DNA of 61,771 nucleotides from Phycisphaerae bacterium (GCA_016929015.1 JAFGJQ010000043.1:1-61771); one strand, 5' to 3'. Numbered from the stretch's first letter, positions 867 to 44,634 are shown. Program-made: numbers and translations. Notes: a model not told the origin generated them from the sequence alone.

Positions 867-1484
867 TCAGAGCTGTATAATCAGGCTGATGCACACGTAG
901 AGCGCGAGCAGCGAAATGATCACTAACGCAGCAACGGCCATACCCCGGCGGGCCCGTCGACGAAGGGCCAGGATGGTCAGGACCAGACCGGCCGCCCAGG
1001 TAATCACCATGCCACAGGCCCCCACGCTCAACCCGAGCGCGACGGGAGGGATCTTCCCCTTCTGGGCGTCTTCCATCCACTGCTTCTGCAGCTCGGCAAT
1101 CGAATCCTGCATCTCCTCCACCGAGCTGCCGGGCTCGACCGCACCCATCATCTGCGTAACGGTCAGAATACCCACGCCCACAAGACAAAGAACAGCAAGC
1201 AGCGACGCCACCAGGGCCCAAACGGCATAGGGGTTCCCCTCGGCGACCCCCACACCCGGCGGACCATATGGAGCAGCCGCTCCGTACGGAGCATCCGCCA
1301 AACCTTCAACCTGCTCGACATTGCCGAGCGGTTTGGCCACCGGAGGCGACAGGCGATCAATCGTCGACGCCGCCGGCGCGGTGATCGTGCGGCGGCAGTA
1401 CGGGCAGGCCACCTGCCGGTGCGCCCATTCGTCATCCACTTCGATGGGCTGCTGACAGCCCGGACAGGCAAACTGAATCGCCAT
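867..1484 (-). CDS. membrane protein with N-terminal double-CxxC zinc ribbon
   Basis: ORF 867..1529. The preferred start is MAIQFACPGCQQPIEVDDEWAHRQVACPYCRR (ATG at 1484), which avoids overlap with the upstream gene. There are two CxxC pairs, a Pro/Gly-rich linker and then 3-4 hydrophobic helices (VWALVASLLAVLCLVGVGIL, VALGLSVGACGMVITWAAGLVLTILAL, VAALVIISLLALYVCISLII). Confidence 0.6.
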   Translation of the reverse strand: MAIQFACPGCQQPIEVDDEWAHRQVACPYCRRTITAPAASTIDRLSPPVAKPLGNVEQVEGLADAPYGAAAPYGPPGVGVAEGNPYAVWALVASLLAVLCLVGVGILTVTQMMGAVEPGSSVEEMQDSIAELQKQWMEDAQKGKIPPVALGLSVGACGMVITWAAGLVLTILALRRRARRGMAVAALVIISLLALYVCISLIIQL

Positions 1485-1518
1485 GGCTTGCTGTCTCTGC
1501 TTACGCCATTGGAACGTC

Positions 1519-3261
1519 TCAGGGGGCAACCAGGTTCAGGTCGCTGATGTCCTCGCCCCCCCGTTCGCCGGTTGTGCTGAATCGCGTAATCTTCCTGCCG
1601 GAATCCACAACAAAGAGGAAGTACAGCTCGTAATCCCCCTTGAGGCTCCAGTCCTTGATCCGCTGGAAACCTCGGACGCCGCCCAGCGACCCGATGACCT
1701 CGGGGAAGTACTGCACTTCCATCACCCGCCGGCCCCCGACGTCGGCCACGGCAATCTGTCCGCAGATCTTGTACTGCGCGCCGGATTCGTCCGTGACGAG
1801 GTAGTTCTTCACCGTCTTGACCGCAAAGCTCTTGGCCTGCCCGAGCAGGCTGCCCGCCCGCAGGTTCACCACGTCCACCTGGAGAAGCGCCTTGCCCTCG
1901 GGCACCTTCAGCCGGTGCAGGGGCTCGCCCGCCCCGGACGTCTCCAACGTGCTGATGACGTGTCCGCTGATCAGCTCACCGTCGCGCATCTCGGCGTCGG
2001 CAACCGACGTGAAGTAGACGCCCGCGTGCGGCAGCGCGTTGCCGAAAGACGCCCCCGTCACGTCCGCGCCGTGCGTCCGGCCGCGCGTCTCCGGACCGGG
2101 CCGACCGGCGCCGTCCCGTTCGGACGGCAGCGGCGGTGTTTCCTCCGCCACGGCGGGGGGCAGGGCGTCTGACGTCACCTTCACCGCCGCCCGCGCGCCC
2201 ATCTTGTACTCCAGAAACACCGGCTCGAACGCATGGCCCTTTGAAACCGGTCCCACCTCGGGCAACTCAAACACTACGGAAATCGAGCCGTCGGCGGCCG
2301 GCGTATACAGCTCACTGGCTGCCCACTTCGTCTTCCCTCGCTCGTCTCGCCTGACGAGAAACCGCTGGTGCTTCTTCGTATCGAACACCGCGATCGGATG
2401 GAACTGCTCCATCACCCCGAACCGACCCCGCCCGACCAGCCGGATCTGATACAACGCAAAACGGTGCTTGCCATCCTCGTCCTGGGCGTCGCTGGTCGGC
2501 TTGAACGTGACCGCCCAAAGCTCCCTGCCGCCTTCCTTCCCGTATGTCGGATCCGGCTCCGCCTTCTCGTTGACCGTGTTTCCCATCTCATTCACACCGG
2601 TCGTAATCCGATAGACGTAGTTCTCCCGAACCATCGAAACGAACTGGATCGCGTCCCGCGGCGCCAGGCACCGGACATCGCGCGGGGCGGTCTGGTTCCA
2701 GCCGATTTCGGTCACGTAATCCGGGTGCTCCAGCCGCCACTCCCGCTCGCCGCTGAACACGCCGCTCGAAAAAAGCGAGGCCAGCCTCACCGCAAAACGG
2801 TCCGGCGAAAACAGCAAACCGTTCGGCTCCGCCTTCGGGTCGAATTTCTCGTCCTTGACCTTGATCTGCCGGAAGCCCAGAAACGGCTCGCCGAACGGCA
2901 GCATCTGCAGGGCCACACCCACCACGCCCATGATGCACAAGGCGGTCACCAGCCCGAAGGCCACCCCACCCACGCGGTCCACGATGCTCGGCAGCAGGCA
3001 GCTCCGCCGCAGCAGGGCATCCAGCGTCAGGCGCAGCGTCACCAGAGGCACCACAAAGCAGATCGCCAGCGACAAGGGAAGGGCAAAATCCGGCTTCCAC
3101 TGGATCAGCCACTCCAGGGCCACGTATTCGTGCAATGCGAAGGCAAACACCAGGCTCAGCACGGTGATGACGCACATGATCATCGCGCTGAACAGGCCGT
3201 GGATGGACTGGTAAAAGGCAACGGCCCCGATCAGCGCAATGAGAAACAGCGAAACCGCCAT
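1519..3261 (-). CDS. 580-aa membrane protein: CvpA-like 4-TM N-terminus plus a large soluble domain of unknown function
   Basis: The N-terminal ~125 aa form four hydrophobic helices (MAVSLFLIALIGAVAFYQSIHGLFSAMIMCVITVLSLVFAF...VGGVAFGLVTALCIMGVVGVAL). The layout resembles colicin-V-production (CvpA) family proteins. I recognise no motif in the remainder. It starts 16 nt downstream of the GspE-like gene. Confidence 0.6.
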   Translation of the reverse strand: MAVSLFLIALIGAVAFYQSIHGLFSAMIMCVITVLSLVFAFALHEYVALEWLIQWKPDFALPLSLAICFVVPLVTLRLTLDALLRRSCLLPSIVDRVGGVAFGLVTALCIMGVVGVALQMLPFGEPFLGFRQIKVKDEKFDPKAEPNGLLFSPDRFAVRLASLFSSGVFSGEREWRLEHPDYVTEIGWNQTAPRDVRCLAPRDAIQFVSMVRENYVYRITTGVNEMGNTVNEKAEPDPTYGKEGGRELWAVTFKPTSDAQDEDGKHRFALYQIRLVGRGRFGVMEQFHPIAVFDTKKHQRFLVRRDERGKTKWAASELYTPAADGSISVVFELPEVGPVSKGHAFEPVFLEYKMGARAAVKVTSDALPPAVAEETPPLPSERDGAGRPGPETRGRTHGADVTGASFGNALPHAGVYFTSVADAEMRDGELISGHVISTLETSGAGEPLHRLKVPEGKALLQVDVVNLRAGSLLGQAKSFAVKTVKNYLVTDESGAQYKICGQIAVADVGGRRVMEVQYFPEVIGSLGGVRGFQRIKDWSLKGDYELYFLFVVDSGRKITRFSTTGERGGEDISDLNLVAP

Positions 3262-3277
3262 ACGCTCGCTCCTGATT

Positions 3278-4963
3278 CTACTTGCCCGGCTCGTCCCGCA
3301 AGCCGCGCAGAATCTCGTCCATGCTCGTGACCCCCTCGATCACCTTCAGCAACCCCTCTTCCATCAGGTAGTGCATCCGGGCCTTGCGCGACTGCGCCTT
3401 GATCAGTTTCAACGGCGCGTTGTCGGCGATCATCGCCCGGATGTTCTCGTCAATCTTCAACACCTCGAACAGGCCCGTTCGACCCACATAGCCGCTGCCC
3501 TGGCACGTCTGGCAAATGATCTCCCGGCCCTTCTTGTCGTAGACCGGTTCCGTGGGCGGCGAGTAAAACGTCTCGATCTTGTCCACCGGAAGGTTGAGCT
3601 TCTTGAGCTTGGCCGGGTCCGGCCGATAGCCCACCCGACACGCCGGGCACAGCTTCCGGACCAGACGCTGGCTCACGGACCCCACCATGACCTGGGCCAC
3701 CAGTTTGCTGTCCTCCACCATCGCCATGAGCCGGGCCAGGGCCTCGATGGCGCTACGGGCCTCCATGCCCACATAGAGCTTCTTCTCATCCGCCGCATTC
3801 GCCGCGATCTGGGCGCTGTCACGGTCCGCGCATTCCCCCACCATCACGATGTCCGGCTCGCGGCGGAGGACGGTCTGCAACATGCGGGCGTAACTCACGC
3901 CCTCGTCCCCCTCCCCCTTGTACGTATGCTGCGTGATGTTGTCGATGTCCAGCAGGGGCCGGCGCTCCAGCGTGTAGATGTTCTGCATGAAGGCGTCGTG
4001 CTCCCGCAGCACCGCGTACTGCGTCGTCGTCACCCCGGATTCCGGCGGCCCGCTGAACAGCACGATCCCGTGCGGCTCCCGAATGAGTTCCTTCACGATT
4101 TCTTCACGCGGCCCGGCCAGCCCCAGGTCCGCCAGCCGACGCAGCTCCGCGCTGGTCTGCACCCGCAGCCGCAGCCGCTCACCCTGCGTCGATCCCGACG
4201 TCTGAATCTCGATGAACCCCAGGTCCACGTCGCCCAGCAGGCCGGCCTTCACACGGCCCTTCTGCGGACGACGCCGCTCCTCCGGATTCAGACCGCCCAG
4301 GCGCTTGAGATACCGCAAAAGCCGCTCGCCGTGGTCGGGCGGACCCGACTGCTGGGGCTGCTCGGCCACCACCCCGTCGATCTTGTAGAAGACCCGCGTC
4401 CGCTCCGGTGTGACCAGAACGTCCGCAAGGCTCGATCGACGCCACAACACGTCAAACACGAAGTCCTGCACCGCGTCGAACATCTGACGCTCCTGCAGGT
4501 CCTCCGGCTGATGAACCGCCTTGCCCTCGAAATTGGCCAGGTGGATCCGCAGCCCCTTGTCTGATTGGGCCGCCTGTTTGTCTCCCTTGGCCCGAGCCAT
4601 GACCCCCTTGATGTGATTCCAGGTCAGGACCCGCGCGTCCGGAACCACCCGACCGTTCCGATGGAAGACGTACGCCAGGGCGGATGCCCCCGCCAGAACG
4701 ACCCAGAATGACAGGCCGATGAAGTAGCTTGCGCCGGACCAGGGCGGCAACAGGCACACCAGCAATCCGGCGATGCCTCCGGCCAACACGATCAGGTTCC
4801 ACTGCTCGCGCTTGGTCTTCACCACGTCCGTGTCACGGTCCACCCACTGGCACAGGTAGCACCACAACACGAACAGCACGAGCACGGCGGCGATTTTGAC
4901 GTAATTGAAGTATCCGGGGTGGACCGACGAAAATTGGGCCAGCAAAGCCATGCTGTTTTGCAT
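3278..4963 (-). CDS. GspE/PilB-family secretion-ATPase homologue, membrane-anchored, with degenerate catalytic motifs
   Basis: The fold markers are retained: tetracysteine CPAC...CQTCQGSGYVGRTGLFEVL and the Walker B region LRREPDIVMVGECAD. Walker A reads GPPESGVTTT (no Lys, 4028-4051). The Asp box reads TLERRPLLDI and the His box KKLYVGMEARSA. The N-terminal ~100 aa carry 3 predicted TM helices. Confidence 0.85.
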   Translation of the reverse strand: MQNSMALLAQFSSVHPGYFNYVKIAAVLVLFVLWCYLCQWVDRDTDVVKTKREQWNLIVLAGGIAGLLVCLLPPWSGASYFIGLSFWVVLAGASALAYVFHRNGRVVPDARVLTWNHIKGVMARAKGDKQAAQSDKGLRIHLANFEGKAVHQPEDLQERQMFDAVQDFVFDVLWRRSSLADVLVTPERTRVFYKIDGVVAEQPQQSGPPDHGERLLRYLKRLGGLNPEERRRPQKGRVKAGLLGDVDLGFIEIQTSGSTQGERLRLRVQTSAELRRLADLGLAGPREEIVKELIREPHGIVLFSGPPESGVTTTQYAVLREHDAFMQNIYTLERRPLLDIDNITQHTYKGEGDEGVSYARMLQTVLRREPDIVMVGECADRDSAQIAANAADEKKLYVGMEARSAIEALARLMAMVEDSKLVAQVMVGSVSQRLVRKLCPACRVGYRPDPAKLKKLNLPVDKIETFYSPPTEPVYDKKGREIICQTCQGSGYVGRTGLFEVLKIDENIRAMIADNAPLKLIKAQSRKARMHYLMEEGLLKVIEGVTSMDEILRGLRDEPGK

Positions 4964-5085
4964 TGTTCCCTACTCGGCTCGCAGGATTCCAGAAACGCTT
5001 TCGCGGGTCGACCGCACCAGACCCGCCCGGGCACACCATCACCCTCCGGTCGGGCCGACCCGGGGTCGGCACAGCGTACCCGGTC

Positions 5086-6402
5086 TCACCCGATGATGCC
5101 ACCACCCGAAACGCTAATCCCTTTGAGCCGCATACGCAACTCATCCGGGTTCGGGGCAACCGAGTATGCCGTCTTCGAGGAAATGAACTCCTCCACCACC
5201 AGCTTACGCAGATACTCGCCGAAGTCGATCATCCCCTCGTTGTACGAATTCCGGATGACGCCCAGAATGTCGTTGTCCCGCTTCTCCGAAATCAGCTTCC
5301 GCACCGTGCTGTTGGCGATCATGATTTCCACGGCCGGTATCCGCGGCACGTCCGCCCGCAACCCCGGCAGAAGCTTCAGGCAGATGATCGCCTGCAGGTT
5401 GAACACCAGCGAGCTGCGCACCAGGTCCCGGGCGTCCTCCGGAAACAACTCCAGCACGCGCGTGATCGTGCTCGACGTGCCCGACGCATGCACCGTCCCG
5501 AACACCAGGTGACCCGACTCCGCCGCCTGAAGTGCCGCTGAAAAAGTTTCCTCGTCGCGCATTTCCCCGATGAGCACCACGTCCGGGTCCTCACGCATCA
5601 GGTACTTCAGCGCGTCATGGAAGTTGTCCACGTCCAGCCCGATCTCACGCTGGTTGATAAACGCCTTCTTGTCCGTGTACATGAACTCGATCGGGTCTTC
5701 CACCGTCACGATGTGGCACGCGCGCGTCTGGTTGATCTGCTCGATCATCGCGGCGATCGTCGTACTCTTCCCGCTGCCCGTGATGCCTGAAACCAGCACC
5801 AGGCCCTGATGCAGCTCCGCAATCGTGGCCAGAGACGTCGGAAGATGCAGCGCGTCGTAATCCAGAATCTCAAACGGAATCCGACGGGCGGCCACCGACG
5901 TCTTCCCCCGCTGGCGGAACACGTTGATGCGGAAGCGAGCCGCCTCACCGAACTGGTAGGCAAAGTCCATCGACCCCTTCCGCTTGTAGATCTCAATCTG
6001 CTCCGGAGTCATGATCTCATAGATCATGGCCTCGATCTCATCGTTGGCCAGCGGACCGCCCTTGATCGACTTGATGTGCCCGCCCATGCGCATTCGGGCA
6101 CGCGACTCCGCCTTCAGGTGAAGGTCCGAAGCCCTCATCTTGTTGACCGTCTTGAAGAACTTGTCGATCCGCTTGGAGCCGTTGCGAGCGGCGGGGCCCT
6201 CCTCCGACTCCACCGCCAGAATCTCCACCGGCTCATCTGTGATTTGTGGGGCATCGTTTCCGCCGGGCTGTTCGGCGGCCGTCTCGTTCAATGCTGGCTC
6301 GTCCACGTGGCTCACCCTCTGTCCTTCGGCGTGTGGGACATCGATCCCCCCGATCGATGCGTCAACATCCGCGTTTCTTGGGTTTGGATTGCTACGGACC
6401 AA
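5086..6402 (-). CDS. pilT: PilT/PilU-type retraction ATPase with ~100-aa acidic N-terminal extension
   Basis: All four catalytic motifs are intact: Walker A GITGSGKSTT, Asp box TVEDPIEFMY, Walker B REDPDVVLIGEMRD, His box GHLVFGTVHAS. Confidence 0.9.
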   Translation of the reverse strand: MVRSNPNPRNADVDASIGGIDVPHAEGQRVSHVDEPALNETAAEQPGGNDAPQITDEPVEILAVESEEGPAARNGSKRIDKFFKTVNKMRASDLHLKAESRARMRMGGHIKSIKGGPLANDEIEAMIYEIMTPEQIEIYKRKGSMDFAYQFGEAARFRINVFRQRGKTSVAARRIPFEILDYDALHLPTSLATIAELHQGLVLVSGITGSGKSTTIAAMIEQINQTRACHIVTVEDPIEFMYTDKKAFINQREIGLDVDNFHDALKYLMREDPDVVLIGEMRDEETFSAALQAAESGHLVFGTVHASGTSSTITRVLELFPEDARDLVRSSLVFNLQAIICLKLLPGLRADVPRIPAVEIMIANSTVRKLISEKRDNDILGVIRNSYNEGMIDFGEYLRKLVVEEFISSKTAYSVAPNPDELRMRLKGISVSGGGIIG

Positions 6403-6597
6403 TCCGGGGTTCGGTCGGCCCGGTCCCCTCCCGGTGCCCCACCGGAAACCGCGGCAGGGCTGGGTCCCAGGAACCCCTATATTGTAACGTCGAAAAGCAG
6501 GGCTTCAAGTCGCGAAACGCCCCCCTTGCAGACACCCGCCTGCGGCATCATCCTGGCAGGGTCGGTTCGCATTCCGTATGCCCCAGGGAGCCCTCTG

Positions 6598-7101
6598 ATG
6601 CGCAAGGCCATCATCGGAGTCATGGGCGGCAGCCACGTGCCCCCCGCCATCGAGCAACAGGCGGAGCAACTCGGCCGCGCCATCGCAGCCCAAGGCTGGA
6701 TTCTGCTCAACGGCGGACGCAACTGCGGCGTCATGGCAGCCTCCGCCCGCGGGGCCCGGGCCGAGGGCGGTACGACCATCGGCATCCTGCCCGGCCAAAA
6801 CACGGACGACGCGGCACCAGACGTCGACATTGCCATCGTCACCGGAATGGGCGACGCGCGAAACCTGGTCAACGTTCTCTCCAGCACGGTCGTCGTGGCC
6901 ATGCCCGGCGGGACGGGAACGGCCTCGGAAGTCGCCCTCGCTCTCAAGAACGGCAAACGCGTGATTCTGCTCGGCTTCCCGGATTCTCCGCTCTTTTCGG
7001 CCCATCGGCAGGCCGGGCAGCTCACCGTGGCGAACACGGTGGACGAGGTCATCGCCCAGGCAACGGCAACGATTGAAGCATTACGGCACGAGGGCGTATG
7101 A
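6598..7101 (+). CDS. TIGR00725/LOG-family Rossmann-fold protein
   Basis: MRKAIIGVMGG...GGRNCGVMAASARGARAEGGTTIGILPG...PGGTGTASEVALAL. GGxxGxM and PGGxGTxxE are the hallmark motifs of the LOG/lysine-decarboxylase-like family. The start was taken at an internal ATG (6598) of track ORF 5809..7101; the upstream part of that ORF is antisense to pilT. Confidence 0.75.
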   Translation: MRKAIIGVMGGSHVPPAIEQQAEQLGRAIAAQGWILLNGGRNCGVMAASARGARAEGGTTIGILPGQNTDDAAPDVDIAIVTGMGDARNLVNVLSSTVVVAMPGGTGTASEVALALKNGKRVILLGFPDSPLFSAHRQAGQLTVANTVDEVIAQATATIEALRHEGV

Positions 7102-8824: not shown

Positions 8825-10279
8825 ATGCGTCGAACACTGCATCAGTGGGGACTCGTGCTGCTCACGGCGGGACTGCTGGGATGGGCCGGTTGTGCGGCTT
8901 CCGGCGGTGGAGGCGGCGGAGGAGGCGGTGCCACCAACAACAATGACAACACCGTCGCCAACGACAACAACGACAACGCGAACGAACCGTCGCCCGGCTT
9001 CGCGGCGTTTTCGGCCAGGGGGTGCACGGCCTGTCATACCAGCGAGTCCAACAACTTCGCGAACAGCACGATCGACGACATCGTCGATACGCTGCTCGGT
9101 GACAAGCCCCACCCCGGCGGCGAGTTCGGCGACCTCACCGAAGAGGAGACCGACCTGATCACCGAGTTTCTGCTGGACGTGATGCTCGGCGACGACGACA
9201 ACGCCAACGACAACGCCGACAACGAGAACGAAAACGACAACGACAACCTGAACGACAACGAAAACGACAACTCGGACGGCGGCGGCGGTGGCGGCGATGA
9301 CGCGGATTACACCGCGGACCAGGTCCAGGCATGGTTCGACCAGGTCTGGACGGATTTCGATCAGGACTACTCCCACTTTGCCGACAAGGGCGTGGACTGG
9401 GACGCCCTGCGAGACCAATACGCCGACCAGTTCAACGTTGCCATGACGGAAAGCGCGTTCCTGGCTCGCCTGTCCGACCTCCTGGCGGAGTTGCGGGACC
9501 TGCACATTTGGATCGAGGACGCCCAGGGCAACGCCACCGCCCCCTATATGCGCACGGCCGAGCAGAACTTCCCCAGCGACAACACCCCGTCGTACTTCCC
9601 GCAGGGGCTCAGCCAGGTGGAAGCCTTCCCCCTGTTCCACGGCTGGCTGGAGAACAACCTCGCATACATCGCCATCGACACTTTCTCAGACAGCGAATGG
9701 GACGGGCTGCGTACCAGCCACCTGGACGGCATGTTCTCCACGTACGCCGCCGCCGACGGAATGGTCATCGACGTGCGCCGCAACAACGGCGGCAACGAGT
9801 TGATCGCCAAGGCACTGGCCGGCTACCTCACCGACACTGCCTACATCTACGGCTACCACCGCCTGCGTAACCCGGGCGACGATCACGCGGATTTCGGCGA
9901 CTGGGTGGAGCACAGCCTCGAGCCGGCGCAGAACCACGTGTTCACCAGCCCGGTCGTATGCCTGATCGGCGAGACGAACATGAGTTCGGCCGAGTGGTTC
10001 GTCCTGATGATTTTCGAGAACCCCGACGGTATCACGCTCATCGGCGATACCACGCGCGGCAGCTCCGGGTCGCCCCAGCCGTTCTCGCTGGATAACGGCC
10101 TCACGTACCACATCCCGAGCTGGGAGGCGTACCGGGCGGACCAGACCACGAAAATCGAAGACGTGGGCGTCCCCCCCACCGCCGGATATGCGATTCCGCC
10201 CGGCGAAGGCACAGACAACAGCTACACCGGCGACCGGGACCTGGTACTTGAGCGAGGCATCGACGCATTGACTCCGTAA
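8825..10279 (+). CDS. secreted or lipoprotein S41-family peptidase with an N-terminal CxxCH segment and Asn/Asp low-complexity linkers
   Basis: Signal/lipobox-like LLTAGLLGWAGC. CTACH is a heme-c-type motif. Low-complexity linkers: poly-Gly and (N/D)n runs. The S41 core shows VIDVRRNNGGNELIAKALAGYL and LIGETNMSSAEWFVL. Confidence 0.7.
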   Translation: MRRTLHQWGLVLLTAGLLGWAGCAASGGGGGGGGGATNNNDNTVANDNNDNANEPSPGFAAFSARGCTACHTSESNNFANSTIDDIVDTLLGDKPHPGGEFGDLTEEETDLITEFLLDVMLGDDDNANDNADNENENDNDNLNDNENDNSDGGGGGGDDADYTADQVQAWFDQVWTDFDQDYSHFADKGVDWDALRDQYADQFNVAMTESAFLARLSDLLAELRDLHIWIEDAQGNATAPYMRTAEQNFPSDNTPSYFPQGLSQVEAFPLFHGWLENNLAYIAIDTFSDSEWDGLRTSHLDGMFSTYAAADGMVIDVRRNNGGNELIAKALAGYLTDTAYIYGYHRLRNPGDDHADFGDWVEHSLEPAQNHVFTSPVVCLIGETNMSSAEWFVLMIFENPDGITLIGDTTRGSSGSPQPFSLDNGLTYHIPSWEAYRADQTTKIEDVGVPPTAGYAIPPGEGTDNSYTGDRDLVLERGIDALTP

Positions 10280-10333
10280 CCACCGTGGGAAACCACGATC
10301 GAGCCCGCGGGCGGTGGTGGAGTGAGCTCCGTG

Positions 10334-11293
10334 TTACGCACCATGCAAAAGCTCCACTGCCGCCCGCTTCAGCAACTGCGTGACCCTGGTCGGGTCCACG
10401 CGCCCGGGTAACAGGCGCGTCGCCGCTTCGGTGGCCGTCGCCAGGGCCCGTCGGTGCGCCTCCCCCGCGTCGTGCCCCTTGAGCCGGGCCGCGATGAACC
10501 CCGCCAGCAGCGCGTCACCGCACCCCACCGTGCTGACCACGTCCTTGGAATCCAACTCCACTTGCCCGATGTAACCACGATCTTCCGTAAACAGGTACCC
10601 CCCGGCCGACCCGCAGCTCACCAGCACGTTATCGACCGTCTCACACAAAGCACGCCCCTCCCGCACCAAATCATCGTCACTGCCCAGCGGCCGGCCGATC
10701 ATGGCATGCAGCTCCTCACGGTTCGGCTTGATCGCCCACAGACGATTCGATCGAACCTCGCGCAGCAGCGGCCCGTCCGCATCAACGGCCACGGCGGCGC
10801 CCCGTCCGATGCACTCCCGGATCAGCGTGCTCAGGTCCGACGGTTCCATGCCCGGCGGAAGCGAGCCGGAGAACACCACCAGCACACGTGCATGGGCCAG
10901 AAGGCCCAGTTTGCGAACCAGCCGATCCACATCGTGTCGCTTCACGTGAAACCCGATGTCACGCACGTGGGTCTCCGTGTTCGCGCGGGGGTCGATCAGC
11001 GTGATGTTCTCTCGCGTATTCCCTTCGACGGCAAGGAATTGTGATTGCACGCCGTCTGACGCCAGACTGTCCTCAAACGCCTGCATCTCCGCCGCACCGA
11101 CAAAACCGGTTGCCACCGGAGGATGCCCCAGGGTGGCCAGCACCCGGGCGACATTCACGCCCTTGCCGGCCGGTGCCCGATACAGACGGCGACCCACTTG
11201 GTGTGCTCCCAGCGTCAGCCCGGGCACCTCGAATAGACAGTCGATCGCCGGATTCACCGTGACCGTCACGACCCGTTCGAATGCGGTTTCCAT
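10334..11293 (-). CDS. PfkB-family sugar(-phosphate) kinase (1-phosphofructokinase/tagatose-6-P kinase type)
   Basis: VTVNPAIDC..., APAGKGVNVARVL and the C-terminal GCGDALLAGFIAA signature of ribokinase/pfkB kinases. Confidence 0.85.
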   Translation of the reverse strand: METAFERVVTVTVNPAIDCLFEVPGLTLGAHQVGRRLYRAPAGKGVNVARVLATLGHPPVATGFVGAAEMQAFEDSLASDGVQSQFLAVEGNTRENITLIDPRANTETHVRDIGFHVKRHDVDRLVRKLGLLAHARVLVVFSGSLPPGMEPSDLSTLIRECIGRGAAVAVDADGPLLREVRSNRLWAIKPNREELHAMIGRPLGSDDDLVREGRALCETVDNVLVSCGSAGGYLFTEDRGYIGQVELDSKDVVSTVGCGDALLAGFIAARLKGHDAGEAHRRALATATEAATRLLPGRVDPTRVTQLLKRAAVELLHGA

Positions 11294-11360
11294 GTGCGAA
11301 CCTCACTACTCCTGCGTCCGGCTCAGTGGACGCCGACGCCCGCCAGCGTACCATGACCGC

Positions 11361-12098
11361 ATGGCCCTGACCAAGGATGAGGCAATCGCCCTGCGGCGAC
11401 TGGATTACTCGGAAACCTCGCAGGTGCTCGTGTTCCTGACCCGCGAGCACGGCAAGGTGCGGGCCATCGCCAAGGGCGTCAAGCGAGGCACGAAGTCACG
11501 GTTTGCCGTGGGGATCGACTTGCTGGAACTCGGACACGTCGTTGTCTCCGCACGGCCGGGCGGAGGGGCGGAGCTGGCCACCGTCACCGAGTGGAAGCAG
11601 GTGCGGTCCATGGCAGGTCTGCGGCAGCGACTCGCACGAATGCATGCCGCCGAGTACGCCGCGGAAGTGACCGCCGCCCTGACCGAAGACTGGGATCCCC
11701 ACCCGCGAGTCTTTGCCGCCCTGGTGGGCTTGCTGGACGACCTGTGCCAGGCGAACCAGGTCTTCGATCGGCTGGTGGATTTCCAGCGCGAGCTTCTGGA
11801 CGAAATCGGCTCGCTCCCGGAGTTCGCCGCGTGCCTGACCTGTGGCCGGATTCCCGAGCCGGACGAGCCCGTCCACTTCTCCTCCTTTGAAGGCGGGTTG
11901 CTCTGCCGCGACTGCGAGCCGGCCCATGTCGAGAAGCGAGAGTTGCTGCACGGCTGTCTGTCGATCCTTCGCGGCCAGCCCGGCCACCCCACGTCCCAGG
12001 TCGCCGCCTTCGACATCCTCAACTATCACATCGCCCACCTGATGGGCCGCAACCCCACCACCGCCCCCGTCCTCCTAGCCACCGCGTCCCCCGCCTGA
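11361..12098 (+). CDS. recO: DNA repair protein RecO
   Basis: MALTKDEAIALRRLDYSETSQVLVFLTREHGKVRAIAKGVKR (OB-fold N-terminus) and a C-terminal zinc motif CLTCG...LLCRDC. The start is the internal ATG of track ORF 10956..12098. Confidence 0.85.
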   Translation: MALTKDEAIALRRLDYSETSQVLVFLTREHGKVRAIAKGVKRGTKSRFAVGIDLLELGHVVVSARPGGGAELATVTEWKQVRSMAGLRQRLARMHAAEYAAEVTAALTEDWDPHPRVFAALVGLLDDLCQANQVFDRLVDFQRELLDEIGSLPEFAACLTCGRIPEPDEPVHFSSFEGGLLCRDCEPAHVEKRELLHGCLSILRGQPGHPTSQVAAFDILNYHIAHLMGRNPTTAPVLLATASPA

Positions 12099-12413: not shown

Positions 12414-15400
12414 TCAGTCGAAGAACGGCTGAATCATCGAGAAGTCCTTCAGGTCGACGTCGGTGTCACCATCCGCGTTGGCGCAGGCGCACTCGGTGGC
12501 GTGCGGGACGTCCGGTCCGGCCAGGCAGTCGGCGATCAGCGGCCAGTCGGCGAGATCGACGTTGAAATCGTTGTTGCAGTCGCCGGGGTACGACGGGCCG
12601 GGGCCCAGGTACACATCGCGAATGTCGACGTGCGCCTCGCCGAAGCGAACCGGCTCTTCTTCCTCCACGTACAGCGCGTGCCCGCTGAACATGATCTGCG
12701 CAACCTGCGTGGGGTCGAACAAATCGTCGGCCGCGATGATGTCCAGCGGTGCCTCGATGGTCTGCCACGCGGGATACGGTTCGTCGGGTTGCGGGCCGTA
12801 CAGCGCACCGAGATCCGCGGTGTACCCCATGGAATCGAGCAGCGTCACATAGATCGGGGCGTGGTCGTACGGAGCCGGATACGCCTCGCTCTGGTAGTAG
12901 CGGGCGGCGAAACTCAACATGAGCCCGGGTTCCGTGACGTCGGCCGGATCGTGACAGGCCCATCGTAGATCGATGATCGGTCCGGACCAGGCCTGGCCCA
13001 TCGGGAACAGGACGCGGGTGAACGCGTGCAGGCCGTCGTTGAGAAAGAGCAGTTCGGCGGGCGGCTCAACCTGGATCGCGTCAAGGGTCGGGTCGCTTGG
13101 GTCGTGCAGGTTGATCTGCTGATCCATCGGGAAGACGGCCGGCAGCGGCAGGCCGCCTTCGGCGACAACGGTGGTCACGGCCGAGCTGGACAGCCCATCT
13201 TCGTCGTAGGTCGTCAGTTTGATCTCGGACGAACCGAGCGGCAGCGTGACGACGATGTCGGGATAGTCACCGTCGTAGAGGACCTTGTTGTTGACGGTCC
13301 AGACCCAGCGGGTGATCGGGCCGTCGGGATCGTAGCTGCCGCCGCCGCTGACCGGCGTGGGATACCGCGGGCAGCCCGGCGGGGTCGCCGGCGTCGACGG
13401 CGGCGTGGTGAGCGGCGGGTTCCCGGGGATGCACCACCAGAAGGTGAACGGATCCCAGTTGTCCGGCGCCGAATAGAGCCCGTCATTCAGCACGTCGGCA
13501 TAGAGGTACCAAGGCCCCGCGTAGGGACAATCGTGCACGTGATGCTGGATGGCGCCGCCGCGGCGATTCGTGACGAACAGGCCGCTGGGGGCGATCGGAT
13601 CTCCGTCGTTCTTGGACGGATAGCCGGGCCCGAGCTCGTACCAATAGAGGGACCATTCGTGGAAGGTGCGCGTCCGGCGCGCATTCGTGTCGACGATATA
13701 CACCGGCTCGCCGACGAGGTAGATGTCCTTGTCGACGTGGATGGTGATCTCCAGGTCTGCCGGCCGGAACATGCAGGTTTCCCACTGCTCGGGGTTGTGG
13801 CCGTTGCCGTTGATATCCTCGCCGCCGTCAAAGTCGCTGTCGTCGTCCGAGTCGCAGTCGGCCTCGGAGCGAAGGCCGTCGCCGTCCCAGTCGGAGAACG
13901 ACAGAGCGTCGTTTTCATGGCCGGAATGGTACCGGTCGTGGAAGGTGTAATTGCGGATCTCTTCCTTGTCGGGCACTTCGTCGTCATCGGTATCCTGGTC
14001 GCCGGGCAAGGACTGCAAAGCCCGCGTCGTCTCGTCGAAATCCATCACACCGTCTCCGTCGGAGTCGGTGGTGACGGAGGTTTCCTGCATCCGGCCGGTC
14101 GTGCCCGCGGCGGGCTGCAGCCAGACGGCGTCGAACTGGTTGGTGCGGTGGTGACGCCAATATGGCGTGGGGGACCCGGCGATGACGTAGCTGAACACGT
14201 GCGGATGATAGGGCCCGCGCCACGGGTCATGGGCGTAGACGATTTGGCAGTTGGTTCCGCTCGTCGTCGTGAACTCGAAGTAGAAGGTCGGGACCAGGCA
14301 GTGGCCGGGCACGGCGGCGACGAAGCACTCGCGTTCATCGATCCACTGTTTCATCTGCGCGAAGGTGAAGTTGCCCGCGCCGACGTATTGGTAGTTGATG
14401 GCGGCGCCGTTCAGCGCCCAGGACAGGGTGGTGGTGATTCGTCCGTCGCTGTTTGCCCGGTCATGCCCCAGGTCGCCCTCCGGCTCGGGGCGTTGCGTGT
14501 TCCAGTTCTCGTAGGCGATTCGATCCTGGCTTAAGTCACCGCCGTGTCTGCCGTTGACCATGGCGATGGACGCAGCCCAGCAGTAGTTTCGGCCGTGGCG
14601 GCAGCCGCTGTCGTCCGGGCTCTGGTTCGGGTGGGGCTGGTCCCAGGCGCAGCTTCCGGCTTCCGGACAGCCCGGGCGGGTATGCGCATCCATGTCGTTC
14701 CAGAGGCACAGCAGATTCGTATCCTTGCGCTGATACTTGAACGGGCAGGACCGGCAGAATTGCGCCTCCAGGCTTTCCAGATCCGAGTTCACCACAAACA
14801 TCCACTCGGCGGACCAGGGCGTGAAATCGACGCCGATCTGGGCACGCACGCGCCAGAAGTAAACATTGGTCGGCAGGGTCAGGCCGGGCGTGTACTCGGC
14901 GCCGGGCAGGCCGGTGGCATAAACCAGCGTGGTGGCGAACGTGTAGTCCGTCGCCAACTGGAATTCGTAGGTGGTGGCGCCGGGGAGGGGCATCCAGGTG
15001 AACGTGGCCGGTGTCGTGATGAACACGTCGCGGTTGCTCGGTGACAGTTGAATCGGGTTTTCGACCGGGTAGGCCCGGTGGTGCGCGTAGAGGGAGATGG
15101 GTACGATGCGCCAGTCTTCAGGCAGATTGCGATCGAAGCCGTCGAAGTATCGCGCCAGCGAGTCACCGGTCGTGAGTTGGTTTGTGGGTACGAAAGCGCC
15201 GGCGGTCCACACGCCGGCGGCGACCGCGTGGTCATGGGCGACATCGGGGAGGTAGACGTCGTCGCGGCTCCAGGAGACGAAGTCGACGAGAGTCCCGCTG
15301 CCGGGGGAGCCGTTGTAGAGCGCGCACTCGTCCTCGGTCGGGTCAAATGGCAAGCCGACCGGGCCAAGGAACAACTCCCCGGCACCGTCCGTGAAATCCA

Positions 15401-15734
15401 GTTCGTCGATCCCACCGGTGAGGTAGACCGTAAGGAAGCATCCGCCCGGCAGGTTCAAGGGCGGCAGGACGATGGCCGGCAGGGCATCGCCGCGCGTGAT
15501 CGTCCAGTTGGCCAGATCCACGCTGCCGGGGCCGCTGTTGTACAGCTCGATGCGCGTGGCGGCGCTCCGCAAGTCGTCGCGGCCGAGACTGGCGGGATCG
15601 TAAACGACCTCGTTGAGCAGGACATCGGCCAGCGCGGTCGGGCTGCTCGCGGCCAGCACCAGGGCCAGGGCCAAAAAGGGAATCAGGGCCCGACTCGCTC
15701 CACGCGTGCCGCGCGTCGATTGTCTGCACATCAT
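12414..15734 (-). CDS. ~1,100-aa secreted multidomain protein with LTD, Fn3-like, papain/C39-like, TSP3-type Ca repeat, PKD-like and C-terminal dockerin-type modules
   Basis: Start chosen at MMCRQSTRGTRGASRALIPFLALALVLAASSPTALA (signal peptide). LTD: VLLNEVVYDP...RIELYNSGPGSVDLANWTI. Cys/His protease-like: NYCWAASIAMVNG...VPGHCLV. Ca repeats: DSDGDGVMDFDE, DQDTDDDEVPD, DWDGDGL..DCDSDDDSDFDGGEDINGNG. PKD-like: GGSYDPDGPITRWVW. Dockerin-like: GDCNNDFNVDLADW...ADGDTDVDLKDF. Confidence 0.8.
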   Translation of the reverse strand: MMCRQSTRGTRGASRALIPFLALALVLAASSPTALADVLLNEVVYDPASLGRDDLRSAATRIELYNSGPGSVDLANWTITRGDALPAIVLPPLNLPGGCFLTVYLTGGIDELDFTDGAGELFLGPVGLPFDPTEDECALYNGSPGSGTLVDFVSWSRDDVYLPDVAHDHAVAAGVWTAGAFVPTNQLTTGDSLARYFDGFDRNLPEDWRIVPISLYAHHRAYPVENPIQLSPSNRDVFITTPATFTWMPLPGATTYEFQLATDYTFATTLVYATGLPGAEYTPGLTLPTNVYFWRVRAQIGVDFTPWSAEWMFVVNSDLESLEAQFCRSCPFKYQRKDTNLLCLWNDMDAHTRPGCPEAGSCAWDQPHPNQSPDDSGCRHGRNYCWAASIAMVNGRHGGDLSQDRIAYENWNTQRPEPEGDLGHDRANSDGRITTTLSWALNGAAINYQYVGAGNFTFAQMKQWIDERECFVAAVPGHCLVPTFYFEFTTTSGTNCQIVYAHDPWRGPYHPHVFSYVIAGSPTPYWRHHRTNQFDAVWLQPAAGTTGRMQETSVTTDSDGDGVMDFDETTRALQSLPGDQDTDDDEVPDKEEIRNYTFHDRYHSGHENDALSFSDWDGDGLRSEADCDSDDDSDFDGGEDINGNGHNPEQWETCMFRPADLEITIHVDKDIYLVGEPVYIVDTNARRTRTFHEWSLYWYELGPGYPSKNDGDPIAPSGLFVTNRRGGAIQHHVHDCPYAGPWYLYADVLNDGLYSAPDNWDPFTFWWCIPGNPPLTTPPSTPATPPGCPRYPTPVSGGGSYDPDGPITRWVWTVNNKVLYDGDYPDIVVTLPLGSSEIKLTTYDEDGLSSSAVTTVVAEGGLPLPAVFPMDQQINLHDPSDPTLDAIQVEPPAELLFLNDGLHAFTRVLFPMGQAWSGPIIDLRWACHDPADVTEPGLMLSFAARYYQSEAYPAPYDHAPIYVTLLDSMGYTADLGALYGPQPDEPYPAWQTIEAPLDIIAADDLFDPTQVAQIMFSGHALYVEEEEPVRFGEAHVDIRDVYLGPGPSYPGDCNNDFNVDLADWPLIADCLAGPDVPHATECACANADGDTDVDLKDFSMIQPFFD

Positions 15735-16096
15735 GTTTGGCTCCTTGGTTGCGGCCGAATCCGTGAAGTGGTTCGGCCAACGCGCTTCTTTCGGCCGGCA
15801 AGATGATTGGGGGGAGCCTGCTTGGCTTGCTTGAAATGCCCTTCCCCGCCAAATCCCCCACCGACCTACACGTGCACCCCCGATCAACGCAGAGACAGAA
15901 CGGCAACCGCTGAGAGTATTGTCTCAAAAGGTGCGTGCGTGTTCAAGTGGGATGAAAAGGTCTGACACATTGAATGCCTGGGACCCGATACGAATAAGCC
16001 AATTGGCGCGTTTCTCGACGAGCCCGACCGAATCGTTCGCCGTCGTTGGCTGTCATGGCTTGGGAAAGGCGGTTCCTGACCGGCTGGTCTCCGCAG

Positions 16097-34191: not shown

Positions 34192-35018
34192 CGAACGACC
34201 CTCCTGGCAAGAGACAACAGCTTCCCCGCAGCAGCCGACCGCCGGCTTGTTGCCGGGCGGCGGCTCGTCAGTTCGCCCGCCGGAAACGCCGCAGAACCCC
34301 ACGGCTCAAGAGCAGTGGCACACCAGGCGCGCACACTGGGCGCGGATGGTTGGGCGCAGCTTGTTTTGTCGTTACGAACGGGCCCCTGACGCTTTCGCCG
34401 GCGTCAGGGGTGGGGGTGCGCAGACGCGCTGCGCGGGGCGCAGATCCCCTCCATTGGATTCACTCCTCCTACGCGAGAATAGAAACTGCCACGCGACGGA
34501 CATCATGGGTCCCCAAAACGGCCCATCCAGCATGAAGAAATGACAGAACCCCCTCCGTGGGAGAATCTGCTTGTTGCCGTTGCGCCAAATGCTTGTAGCG
34601 CAACCATACCACAGAGCATCCGCAGGGGCAAGCGAAAAACGCAGAGAAACCGGCCATTGCGAAACAAACGTGACTGCCATCATTCGGCACTGTGAGTGCA
34701 ATCACTCAGCCGGGCGGCAGGACAATGACACGGAAGGCGGTGAGGGTGGGAGACAAGTGAGGGATGGTGTCTGGGAGAGTCGGCTTCCCCCCGGCTCGAA
34801 GCCGGGGGCACTCGCCGGCCGGCTGAAGCCGGCCGGTGCGTCGGCGGCTCAGAGGCAAGTGTTCCGCGAGGCGGGTCCGGCAACTGCTGCGAAGCCCCGT
34901 GCCGGGATGGCTGGATCCGAACACCAGAAAAAACGGCCCAGGAGGCGGACCCTGCAATGGCCGCCACCGGGCAGCGCCGTCGATTCATGCGCGCGTCCCT
35001 TCGTCCCTTCGTCCCTTG

Positions 35019-44310: not shown

Positions 44311-44634
44311 TCTTCGGAGGTCCGGCCGCTGACACGACTCGCGCCGGCGACAATCCGTTCCACGACGAGGCGAACTCGCCGCTGCCGGCAATGGCGAGCG
44401 AGCCTGTCCCATCAGGGAGGATCGCGCCCAATCGCTCAGCCAATCCGTGGCGATGCGCGGAGGGCTGCCCTGGGACCCAGGCCGGTTGCCGGACCTGCCA
44501 ACGGAGATATCGACGCCGCGAGCGGGCCGCTACGGCTTCGATTTCCATCAACCTCGCGGGCTACAGTCCGATACCTGCGGATGTGCGATGCGTCTGATAA
44601 GCGGCTTGGCCTTGGCGATTCGGGGCCGTCGGGA

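Follow-up and report, generated by a model that had tools for sequence, protein, structure and literature searches.

A PilT-type ATPase, a membrane-anchored pseudo-ATPase and a CvpA-like protein in a conserved gene module of Planctomycetota

We analysed a stretch of 61,771 nucleotides from a Phycisphaerae bacterium (GCA_016929015.1 JAFGJQ010000043.1:1-61771), referred to below as the window, and found that it carries one form of a module conserved phylum-wide in Planctomycetota, in which an ATPase of the GspE/PilB type with its own transmembrane (TM) anchor is encoded directly before a CvpA-like membrane protein, often with a PilT gene in front. In this window the PilT appears catalytically intact and the anchored ATPase has degraded motifs, a combination that, together with CvpA, possibly represents an envelope machine of a new type. 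Our tentative reading is that an ancient inner-membrane motor module, present throughout Planctomycetota and derived from type IV filament ATPases, occurs here in its Phycisphaerae form, with CvpA holding the platform position. Full-text literature searches and a 2024 review of PilB and its cofactors yielded no prior description of the module, in agreement with a preliminary description of this DNA, whose author knew of no system with this composition.

Layout of the locus and its four proteins

Gene calls bore out four packed genes on one strand, as first described, with spacers of 122, 16 and 34 nt from G1 through to G4:

G1, 5086-6402, minus strand: PilT-type hexameric ATPase, catalytic core intact by its motifs, with an acidic, variable N-terminal extension
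G2, 3278-4963, minus strand: membrane-anchored pseudo-ATPase of predicted GspE/PilB fold
G3, 1519-3261, minus strand: CvpA-like four-TM domain followed by two beta-sandwich domains, predicted periplasmic
G4, 867-1484, minus strand: N-terminal cytoplasmic zinc ribbon followed by three TM helices
Candidate operon promoter, 6481-6508, minus strand: sigma-70-like match (TTGAAG-16-TACAAT) that precedes the PilT ORF, taken at its longest, by about 80 nt

The promoter match comes from a consensus scan only, which returned 2 sites in 7.2 kb against 0.7 expected. No canonical terminator was found between the four genes; the GC hairpin in the G1-G2 spacer has no T tract. Two of the starts involve a choice: that of G1 is uncertain, with TTG 6402 giving the longest ORF and in-frame GTG codons at 6315 and 6306 (PilT orthologues are mostly 385-405 aa long), and for G4 we took the ATG that opens a conserved MAIQF... 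N-terminus, the longest ORF starting at TTG 1529. Downstream of the operon, in the sense of transcription, the window has just 866 nt, which are filled by a Peptidase_M32 gene. Among the PADLOC defence-system models G1 gave only generic P-loop matches (E >= 4.5e-6), and G3 and G4 gave none.

By its motifs, G1 is a catalytically intact PilT. It scored 388.8 bits against the TIGR01420 model (pilT_fam), exceeding the cut-off of 319.1 and covering profile positions 2-343 of 343, and Aquifex PilT (2ewv) matched it with 275 bits. The Walker A motif (GITGSGKST), Asp box (EDPIE), Walker B motif (GEMRD) and His box (GHLVFGTVH) are all intact, and their key residues are kept in 43-44 of 44 orthologues, with a dN/dS of 0.07-0.13.

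G2, judged from sequence and predicted structure, retains the whole PilB/GspE core fold, zinc site included, but its catalytic motifs are degraded. It matched PF00437 (T2SSE) with 183 bits and the GspE, PilB and TfpB equivalog models with 192-218 bits, below their cut-offs of 617-850; the best of these was GspE TIGR02533 (217.7 bits against a cut-off of 630). Its AF2 model (pLDDT 90.2) aligned to PilF and PilB in Foldseek with a TM-score of 0.90, normalised by target, and an rmsd of 2.4-2.6 A. The predicted architecture combines a short N-terminus in the periplasm, three TM helices (approximately 24-42, 57-75 and 81-99 by topology prediction and the AF2 model) and a cytoplasmic loop, followed by an N2D+CTD core with a zinc site of four invariant cysteines (C439, C442, C484 and C487). 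Homology to GspE/PilB begins at about residue 154-187, and no Pfam domain was found in the TM region, residues 1-100. The three-helix anchor replaces the N-terminal domains that normally tether such ATPases to GspL or PilM; domains of the N1E, MshEN or GSPII type, by which soluble family members bind GspL, PilM or c-di-GMP, are absent from G2. It includes a conserved cytoplasmic loop, QWVDRDTDxVKTKREQWN, within which W40, D42, D44, W55 and N56 are invariant across Phycisphaerae and Planctomycetia alike, as are the juxtamembrane residues Y98, R102 and N103.

When G2 was aligned with Thermus PilF, GPTGSGKS was replaced by GPPESGVT, EDPVE by ERRPL, GEIRD by GECAD and GHLV..LHTN by KKLY..MEAR. The position of the Walker A lysine is V, L, I, M or A in all 81 orthologous sequences; both His-box histidines are lost in the same set, the first position being R or K and the second variable; and the Walker B glutamate is retained in 54/81. 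A glycine-rich loop with a threonine triplet, GxxxxG[VLI]TTT, is also retained, as are the Asp-box glutamate (77/81) and an invariant N2D motif, ERRxPQxG, so that G2 might still bind nucleotide. Selective constraint on the protein matches that on PilT (dN/dS 0.08-0.11), and its length is steady, 548-567 aa in 77 of 80 orthologues and 521-532 aa in the other three. Such strong purifying selection on a seemingly dead ATPase makes a structural or scaffold role reasonable.

G3 resembles CvpA at its N-terminus, where residues 4-125 scored 27.5 bits against PF02674 (Colicin_V; gathering score 29.3). The corresponding partners in other lineages scored 38.3 bits (on metagenome contig L091, above the gathering score), 23.3 and 23.1 bits; precomputed PF02674 matches exist for eight G3 orthologues and for the partner in Schlesneria, some G3 orthologues carry the NCBI name 'CvpA family protein', and an NCBIfam search with G3 gave no match. 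The AF2 model (pLDDT 74.8) places helices at 2-21, 23-52, 60-84 and 93-120, giving a CvpA-like domain of about residues 1-125. The loop between TM3 and TM4 (77-99) contains four K+R, which puts the C-terminal part outside the cytoplasm, and about 460 residues are predicted to be periplasmic. After a juxtamembrane region they would form two beta-sandwich domains, at about 200-360 and 410-565, separated by a disordered linker rich in proline and charge.

The preliminary description had called G1 a PilT with intact catalytic motifs and G2 a GspE/PilB homologue with three N-terminal TM helices and ruined motifs. The first identification stands on the TIGR01420 score and the motifs, and the second on PF00437, the PilF alignment and the topology. 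The profile searches that it had proposed gave the expected families for these two, with CvpA just missing its threshold for G3, and the last two genes do encode polytopic membrane proteins, with four and three predicted TM helices.

Conservation in and beyond Phycisphaerae

We examined synteny in a sample of 80 species-level Phycisphaerae loci. G2 and G3 adjoin in 67/69, with gaps mostly of 18-50 nt. PilT lies immediately upstream of G2 in 42/67 and is not adjacent in the other 25 (37%), having parted from G2-G3 several times across the G2 tree. The invariant core is therefore G2-G3. G4 is a loosely linked, lineage-specific neighbour outside this core: its motif, QFxCPxCxQPIEVDDEWA..VACPYC, was found within 4 kb downstream of G3 in only 13/62 loci, its dN/dS is high (0.36-0.46), and its zinc ribbon (CPGC...CPYC) gave weak Pfam zinc-ribbon matches. 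The neighbourhood check thus narrows the four-gene module first proposed: the genes for PilT, the pseudo-ATPase and the CvpA-like protein are a conserved unit with close spacing, but G4 drops out, and PilT is often not adjacent. The flanks of the three-gene unit are unrelated between relatives and without pilus genes. An adh_short gene, clearly unrelated, is frequent upstream (24/80 loci), and the SLOG and M32 peptidase genes flanking the operon here are lineage-specific neighbours, as G4 is.

Planctomycetia have the same TM-anchored GspE, with a short CvpA behind it and often a PilT of the same kind ahead of it. The order in Tundrisphaera is PilT, TM-anchored GspE, CvpA-like; Schlesneria and a Planctomycetaceae MAG have the anchored GspE and then Colicin_V. 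Contig L091 carries a degenerate member (PilT, anchored GspE with degraded motifs, Colicin_V), and the same module is present on two more metagenome contigs (L093 and L094). G1 shares 46-49% identity with the module PilTs of Planctomycetia-type and metagenome loci, and in a tree these formed a group separate from the PilTs encoded after canonical PilB (controls of other phyla; without bootstrap support). G2 is 35% identical to an active anchored protein, P0383, over its full length including the anchor. Directly downstream of the ATPase we found a CvpA-like ORF in 8/9 TM-anchored metagenome loci, and within 6 kb in 0/70 canonical GspE/PilB loci (Fisher p = 3e-10). The anchored ATPase and CvpA are almost always adjoining in both classes of the phylum. 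The order of the two ATPase genes also differs, PilB preceding PilT in the control loci and PilT preceding GspE in the module.

All ATPase motifs were intact in the five Planctomycetia-type sequences in which they were read. Three of these five are the proteins of Schlesneria, Tundrisphaera and the Planctomycetaceae MAG, so an intact anchored ATPase is also found paired with CvpA and, in Tundrisphaera, with PilT. The dead state of G2 is therefore derived, though widespread, and the pseudo-ATPase scaffold suggested in the preliminary description, while reasonable as a role, was not the founding design. The two predicted periplasmic beta-sandwich domains of the CvpA-like protein are likewise a gain in the Phycisphaerae class.

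Pilus context and possible function

Pilin or pseudopilin, prepilin peptidase, PilC/GspF, PilM-Q and secretin genes were all lacking in the part of the window whose genes were scanned, which extends to about 50 kb. The preliminary description had claimed a stretch of at least 6 kb downstream free of pilus and secretion genes. That stretch is indeed free of them; given the 866 nt available downstream, it lies upstream of PilT. Orthologues within ordinary type IV pilus or T2SS loci had been named there as evidence against a separate module. In 10 Pfam-annotated relatives, covering 8-10 kb on each side, the only genes of the kinds just listed were single pilin-like N_methyl/SBP_bac_10 genes in two Planctomycetia loci (L090 and L092), 3-5 kb from the module. 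The absence of pilus genes refers to the stretches checked, and further components could lie elsewhere in the genome, so that the machine need not be self-contained, the possibility raised in the preliminary description.

We propose that G2 would form a membrane-tethered ring, as in its family, by analogy with PilB, PilT and PilC, and that this ring is docked to the CvpA-like protein or surrounds it; CvpA would then hold the position of the PilC/GspF platform. In Planctomycetia the anchored ATPase would itself be a motor, with PilT as its counter-motor. The anchored copy of Phycisphaerae and many other lineages would have turned into a pseudoenzyme and would now serve as a fixed membrane adaptor, through which PilT, as the sole active motor, acts on the CvpA-like protein. 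Movement might be passed to the periplasm by the beta-sandwich domains; candidates for the cargo or target are a pilin-like protein, some exported factor or a component of the envelope. As PilT is non-adjacent in 37% of Phycisphaerae loci and in two Planctomycetia loci, a PilT dedicated to the module is only a possibility.

The separation of PilT from G2-G3, seen several times across the G2 tree, fits another explanation, which we regard as possible but doubtful: that the module is accessory to a type IV pilus or T2SS-like system whose genes are dispersed, with pilins, prepilin peptidase, PilC/GspF and secretin encoded elsewhere. G1 would then be an ordinary retraction ATPase, as its canonical look and its score above the PilT/PilU family cut-off would allow, G3 a lineage-specific accessory, and G2 a membrane-tethered decoy or docking site that controls the place and timing of the machine's engagement by PilT or an active PilB. 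Planctomycetes have many pilin-like N_methyl/SBP_bac_10 genes, including the two near the module, and a full-length active GspE/PilB lies 4.6 kb from the anchored GspE/CvpA pair on L093. Canonical GspE/PilT/GspF operons are also present in Planctomycetes, among them an essential GspE-PilT-GspE-GspF operon in Planctopirus limnophila (PMC10632474). Together with the nearby pilin-like genes, they mean that the module could serve a dispersed filament system. However, PilC/GspF, PilM-Q, secretin and prepilin peptidase occurred in 0/10 annotated neighbourhoods and in none of the window genes scanned, the constant partner of G2 is CvpA, which has no known pilus or T2SS role, and the PilT-then-GspE order is the reverse of the controls.

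The motifs retained in G2 would also suit a ligand sensor rather than a passive scaffold: the degenerate pocket would bind a second messenger, ATP or ADP but not turn it over, and G2 would use its bound state to gate the CvpA-like protein or PilT. FlaH, which does not hydrolyse ATP, gates FlaI of the archaellum in a comparable way. In 8/49 family representatives arginine rather than a hydrophobic residue stands in for the Walker A lysine, and c-di-GMP signalling genes lie near some loci (GGDEF in L005 and L088; EAL-HDOD in L093; a PilZ gene within the window). We nevertheless think this unlikely: the GGDEF link is weak (8/80 loci), profile searches found no MshEN, PilZ or other known c-di-GMP-binding domain in G2, and the partial retention of the Walker B glutamate and free variation of the His-box positions are expected of a pocket no longer used.

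That the clustering is functionally meaningless, with neighbours co-inherited in one lineage and G2 a decaying ATPase gene, describes G4, the M32 peptidase, SLOG and adh_short well but is hardly credible for the core, being already contradicted by the synteny (G2-G3 adjoining in 67/69 Phycisphaerae and also in further planctomycete lineages whose flanks differ, against 0/70 controls) and by the steady length and dN/dS of about 0.1 of G2.

Comparison with known systems

The type IVa pilus motor set (PilB, PilT, PilC) is similar in that a PilB/GspE-fold protein with a zinc site and a bona fide PilT are encoded beside a polytopic inner-membrane protein, and in that both ATPases of the Planctomycetia module look active. 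The module differs in lacking pilin, prepilin peptidase, PilC, PilM-Q and secretin genes in its neighbourhood, in having a CvpA-like membrane partner rather than PilC, in its PilB-like protein, which is anchored by three TM helices and, by its motifs, dead in this window, and in the position of PilT before the PilB-like gene. With the T2SS, where GspE needs membrane tethering to work, the module shares a protein that scores highest on GspE models and has N2E and CTE domains and a zinc site. But GspE is soluble and tethered to GspL through N1E, whereas G2 has no N1E, carries its own anchor and falls far under the GspE equivalog cut-off, and GspF, GspL/M, pseudopilin and GspD genes are absent near the module.

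G3 resembles CvpA and mycobacterial MarP in its N-terminal four-TM CvpA-like domain and, like MarP, has a large extracytoplasmic part, in G3 a predicted one, fused past the fourth helix. We know of no reported ATPase partner of CvpA. Unlike these proteins, G3 carries two beta-sandwich domains with no Pfam match and no significant Foldseek match in the PDB. E. coli CvpA is small, and its function is 'largely unknown' (bioRxiv 10.1101/2020.09.25.314492).

PilT and PilU are paralogous retraction ATPases, one dependent on the other (PMC6821130), and the module likewise encodes two paralogues of this superfamily together. PilU, however, is PilT-type, soluble, active and part of a normal pilus, while G2 is PilB/GspE-type, membrane-anchored and inactive by its motifs.

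In the archaellum, an active PilB/PilT-superfamily hexamer (FlaI) and a ring-forming P-loop protein (FlaH) both sit on a polytopic membrane platform (FlaJ). FlaH binds ATP without hydrolysis; it is RecA/KaiC-like and soluble, not a PilB paralogue, and the archaellum assembles a filament. The analysis of the module showed no homology to FlaH or FlaJ. The likeness lies in the combination of an active hexamer, a non-hydrolysing P-loop partner and a polytopic platform, as we propose for the module.

The four-gene locus and its pseudo-ATPase

Four minus-strand genes were recovered with the same open reading frames (ORFs) and gaps as in the preliminary description:

5086-6402, minus, G1, ORF for a PilT-type ATPase
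3278-4963, minus, G2, ORF for a membrane-anchored GspE/PilB-fold pseudo-ATPase
1519-3261, minus, G3, ORF for a CvpA-like protein with four transmembrane (TM) helices
867-1529 (longest ORF; start taken as the ATG at 1484), minus, G4, zinc-ribbon membrane protein

The start of G4 was set at 1484 because it yields the N-terminus MAIQF... common to the orthologues; with it, the intergenic gaps (G1-G2, G2-G3, G3-G4) are 122, 16 and 34 nt. GC3 in the first three ORFs is 0.81-0.87, consistent with real genes in a genome of 65% GC. The pilus-free stretch of at least 6 kb previously placed downstream in fact lies upstream of PilT, and only 866 nt of the window lie downstream of the operon. Other features of the window are as follows:

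1-816, minus, Peptidase_M32 (carboxypeptidase Taq-like), first 272 residues, running off the window start
about 5051-5067, GC-rich perfect hairpin GCCGACC-CCG-GGTCGGC in the 122-nt PilT-G2 spacer
6598-7101, plus, SLOG cluster 4 (LDcluster4, PF18306, 163 bits), divergent from PilT
12414-15887, minus, lamin-tail-domain protein, 1157 aa
16215-16652, minus, small PilZ-domain protein (PF07238, 35 bits), about 10 kb from the module
27304-34302, minus, RHS-repeat protein with a dockerin-like segment, 2332 aa
35193-38696, minus, Big_1/invasin-like-domain protein, 1167 aa
47939-49537, minus, phage-integrase-family recombinase, 532 aa

The peptidase gene begins 50 nt after G4 as a fifth gene on the same strand, and its product is 63% identical to that of an equivalently placed gene in the related locus L001, probably reflecting lineage-specific synteny. 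The divergent SLOG cluster 4/PilT layout also occurs in L001, a 75%-identical relative. The spacer hairpin has no T tract behind it and might serve in RNA processing or attenuation, or have no role at all. The 2332-, 1167- and 1157-aa proteins are probably surface or secreted proteins. The recombinase gene, downstream of two hybrid histidine kinases and a LuxR-type response regulator (41584-47744), may mark the boundary of a mobile element.

G1 passed the TIGR01420 model (388.8 bits, cut-off 319.1) and matched Aquifex PilT at 275 bits. Its four nucleotide-binding motifs are all intact, with key residues kept in 43-44 of 44 orthologues, and its earlier description as an active PilT stands as a prediction from these motifs. 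An acidic N-terminal stretch of 65-75 residues lacks conservation, orthologues are mostly 385-405 aa long, and the position of the start codon is uncertain.

G2 had been described as a GspE/PilB homologue with three N-terminal TM helices and ruined ATPase motifs, and the Pfam match (PF00437, 183 bits), an alignment to Thermus PilF and the AlphaFold2 (AF2) model all agree with this.

ATPase motifs of Thermus PilF and G2, from their alignment
Walker A: PilF GPTGSGKS; G2 GPPESGVT
Asp box: PilF EDPVE; G2 ERRPL
Walker B: PilF GEIRD; G2 GECAD
His box: PilF GHLV..LHTN; G2 KKLY..MEAR

All 81 G2-type sequences have V, L, I, M or A in place of the Walker A lysine and lack both His-box histidines, and just 54 retain the Walker B glutamate. 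The protein is nevertheless uniform in length (548-567 aa in 77 of 80 orthologues, 521-532 aa in the other three), and its dN/dS against three close relatives (0.08-0.11) is like that of PilT (0.07-0.13) and below those of G3 (0.16-0.22) and G4 (0.36-0.46). The AF2 model is confident (pLDDT 90.2), and its cytoplasmic body superimposes on PilF/PilB with a TM-score of 0.90 normalised by target and an rmsd of 2.4-2.6 A. Together, length, dN/dS and fold argue that G2 is a folded pseudoenzyme under selection rather than a decaying gene.

Hydropathy and the AF2 model both place three TM helices at the N-terminus of G2. The predicted topology is a short outside N-terminus, TM1, a basic invariant cytoplasmic loop, TM2, TM3 and a cytoplasmic N2D+CTD body. 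N1E and other N-terminal domains tether or regulate soluble GspE and PilB; since resemblance to these proteins begins only near residue 155-185, the anchor replaces such domains. Scanned alone against Pfam, the anchor had no meaningful match, and an exact-sequence look-up of G2 returned no record. G2 has none of these N-terminal domains, scores below the equivalog cut-offs for GspE and PilB and does not have the catalytic residues; it belongs to the superfamily fold, not to the GspE or PilB families. We dropped the idea that its retained arginine motif completes PilT active sites in a mixed ring because, as structures of PilB show, the arginines in question work on nucleotide bound within the same chain.

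The remaining two assignments, a CvpA-like protein and a zinc-ribbon membrane protein, also held. Residues 4-125 of G3 match Colicin_V/CvpA at 27.5 bits, just below the gathering score of 29.3. Its four TM helices and basic TM3-TM4 loop (which includes R77, D81 and R86) predict that the remaining 460 residues are periplasmic; AF2 (pLDDT 74.8) models two beta-sandwich domains with a disordered linker between them. Foldseek found no match to the G3 model in the PDB at E <= 0.001, and a Pfam scan of the C-terminal part alone yielded nothing meaningful. G4 has a CxxC...CxxC zinc ribbon, predicted to be cytoplasmic, followed by three TM helices.

Conservation of the module

Full-length G2 homologues number in the hundreds in Phycisphaerae metagenome-assembled genomes (MAGs), at 50-58% identity. 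A scan of one genome per species gave 130 matches, from which 80 loci were kept, nearly all labelled Phycisphaerae or Planctomycetota. G3 directly follows G2 in 67 of the 69 evaluable loci, mostly with gaps of 18-50 nt, and PilT directly precedes G2 in 42 of 67. The four-gene composition proposed at the outset thus survived in part: its G2-G3 adjacency and, less uniformly, its PilT recur, while the G4 motif lies within 4 kb downstream in only 13 of 62 loci. We rejected G4 as a core member on that count and for its fast evolution; it is a lineage-specific neighbour, and the stable unit is G2-G3, usually plus PilT.

Loci lacking PilT are scattered over several places of the G2 tree, one of them a large group, and an adh_short gene precedes PilT in some genomes and G2 directly in others, so PilT adjacency looks ancestral and broken more than once. 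Adh_short often lies directly upstream of the module PilT in Phycisphaerae (24 of 80 loci). Two complete Phycisphaerales chromosomes (L048 and L056) and L101 have no CvpA-like gene after the TM-anchored gene; what follows there is either a convergent gene or one for a sigma-54-type regulator. Complete Phycisphaerae chromosomes with the module include CP070827.1, CP070718.1, OY776568.1 and CP070691.1. In the last of these, the close relative L010 (77% identity, match at 10001-11428), the G2 match does not begin until residue 85; the protein is recorded as 'partial' at 476 aa, and there is no PilT upstream. Either a rearrangement or faulty assembly of the anchor-coding end could account for this.

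The G2 anchor region (residues 1-185), used as a profile against 1.84 billion representative proteins, retrieved 528 clusters, with full-length members of 540-630 aa. Among 49 full-length representatives the Walker A position holds lysine in two, arginine in eight and mostly hydrophobic residues in the rest. One of the two lysine-bearing representatives, P0231, has every motif intact; its large group includes Schlesneria, Tundrisphaera and Tautonia proteins and a Planctomycetaceae MAG protein, and in the five sequences of this group whose motifs were examined GPTGxGK[ST]T, EDP[VI]EY, GEIRD and GHMVFST.H.ND are all intact. G2 and the Tundrisphaera protein are 35% identical over their full length, anchor included. 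Both classes share, without exception, anchor-loop residues W40, D42, D44, W55 and N56 and juxtamembrane residues Y98, R102 and N103.

Gene order at loci found with the wider family (TM-GspE, anchored GspE-type protein; TM-GspE*, version with degenerate motifs; lengths in aa)
L089, Schlesneria: TM-GspE, Colicin_V (242)
L090, Tundrisphaera: PilT (397), TM-GspE (585), CvpA-like (255)
L091, metagenome contig, degenerate member: PilT (381), TM-GspE* (622), Colicin_V (212; 38.3 bits, above threshold)
L092, Planctomycetaceae MAG: TM-GspE, Colicin_V (255)
L093, metagenome contig, distant member: TM-GspE*, long G3-like protein (570)
L094, metagenome contig, Lys-to-Arg member: PilT, TM-GspE*, next gene 3 nt later

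The CvpA-like partners examined beside active Planctomycetia proteins (212-255 aa) are without the beta-sandwich domains. A His_biosynth-family (HisA/HisF-like) gene lies directly upstream of PilT in both L090 (7868-8653) and L091 (5253-6020).

A metagenome scan seeded with the active clade supplied controls. Of its 80 loci, nine match the anchor-region profile and 70 are ordinary GspE/PilB loci from other organisms; L104, with a CvpA-like ORF downstream but no anchor-profile match, was kept out of the counts. When all ORFs of these loci were searched with CvpA-like-domain and module-PilT profiles, a CvpA-like ORF was found directly downstream in 8/9 anchored loci and within 6 kb in 0/70 controls (Fisher p = 3e-10). 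Against the module-PilT profile, the PilTs neighbouring anchored genes, on their upstream side, reached 449-486 bits; those of control loci, mostly located after PilB, reached 301-359 bits. Identity of G1 with the L090, L091 and L094 PilTs is 46-49%. In a neighbour-joining tree, calculated without support values and with control PilTs from other phyla, module PilTs group in a single clade, with a Phycisphaerae and a Planctomycetia-type branch. This pattern fits a dedicated PilT inherited with the module. Altogether, the module is a phylum-wide pairing of an anchored PilB/GspE-like (pseudo)ATPase with CvpA, usually with PilT, and the window holds its pseudo-ATPase, long-CvpA form.

Possible mechanism and alternatives

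By analogy with PilB/PilT/PilC machines, the anchored protein would assemble into a ring tethered to the membrane by its own helices and engage the CvpA-like protein, which would occupy the platform position. An active anchored protein, as in the Planctomycetia-type sequences examined, might power one stroke and PilT the opposite one; with a dead one, the state in Phycisphaerae and in most of the other lineages sampled, PilT would be the sole motor and G2 its fixed adaptor, with the periplasmic domains of G3 the likely output in Phycisphaerae. We hold this mechanism with a little less than even confidence. A bolder reading is tentative and rather unlikely: TM-anchored PilB/GspE, CvpA and PilT would constitute an unrecognised inner-membrane machine of Planctomycetota without a filament, in which CvpA takes the PilC/GspF platform role, the ATPase ring works mechanically on the envelope or on exported cargo, and the anchored ATPase is mostly a pseudoenzyme stator for PilT.

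The main rival, which we consider somewhat unlikely, makes the module an accessory to a pilus or type II secretion system (T2SS)-like system encoded elsewhere. Pilin-like genes are numerous in Planctomycetes and two sit 3-5 kb from the module, and Planctopirus has a separate essential GspE-PilT-GspE-GspF operon (PMC10632474). On the other side, no pilus or secretion genes were found among the genes scanned in the window, which extend to about 50 kb, or in the Pfam-annotated neighbourhoods of five divergent members, whose flanks are unrelated. The original claim of a self-contained machine is only partly supported. The essential T2SS-like operon of Planctopirus limnophila, Plim_0410-0401, was rejected as the module locus: it is distinct, and one of its products is a 'type II secretion system protein', probably GspF. 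A possible orthologous TM-GspE/CvpA pair is Plim_0082 with its hypothetical neighbour Plim_0083, neither of them essential (PMC10632474, supplementary file 3).

A ligand-sensing role for the degenerate G2 pocket is improbable, less to be expected than either the mechanism proposed above or the accessory. Least of all do we believe that the clustering is meaningless: the finding is real, non-random and wider than the preliminary description supposed. GGDEF and EAL-HDOD genes lie near the module in a few loci (L005, L088 and L093). We dropped a c-di-GMP link (GGDEF, EAL and PilZ nearby) as a main line, since GGDEF-like genes occur in only 8 of 80 Phycisphaerae loci, and regard it as weak. Membership of a defence system was rejected after a PADLOC scan showed none.

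Relation to known systems

To our knowledge, PilB/GspE and PilT ATPases have almost no known role other than as motors: they drive pili, type II secretion, competence systems and archaella, where they sit on PilC/GspF-type platforms. Full-text searches found no prior description of the PilT/GspE/CvpA combination, an absence that is no proof for the whole literature, and neither transmembrane PilBs nor planctomycetes appear in a 2024 review of PilB cofactors. What the module adds is a membrane-anchored branch of the PilB/GspE family with CvpA as its constant partner, in a phylum of unusual envelope biology. The function of CvpA is still called largely unknown (bioRxiv 10.1101/2020.09.25.314492); the bolder reading, if true, would give this widespread, enigmatic family its first mechanistic context and PilT motors a new output. 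If the module works as proposed, CvpA gains a testable role as a motor platform, and the active (Planctomycetaceae, Isosphaeraceae), Lys-to-Arg and fully degenerate members offer a natural series for how a pseudo-ATPase persists beside an active paralogue. Planctomycete cell biologists would also gain a compact two- or three-gene set.

The ATPases of the module are those of type IV pili and the T2SS, but no pilin, platform, alignment or secretin genes accompany it in the stretches scanned; it is a type IV filament ATPase module whose membrane partner and architecture are new. Among its nearest functional analogies is the FlaI-FlaH pair of the archaellum, an active ring plus a non-hydrolysing ring. 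The other is the PilT-PilU pair (PMC6821130).
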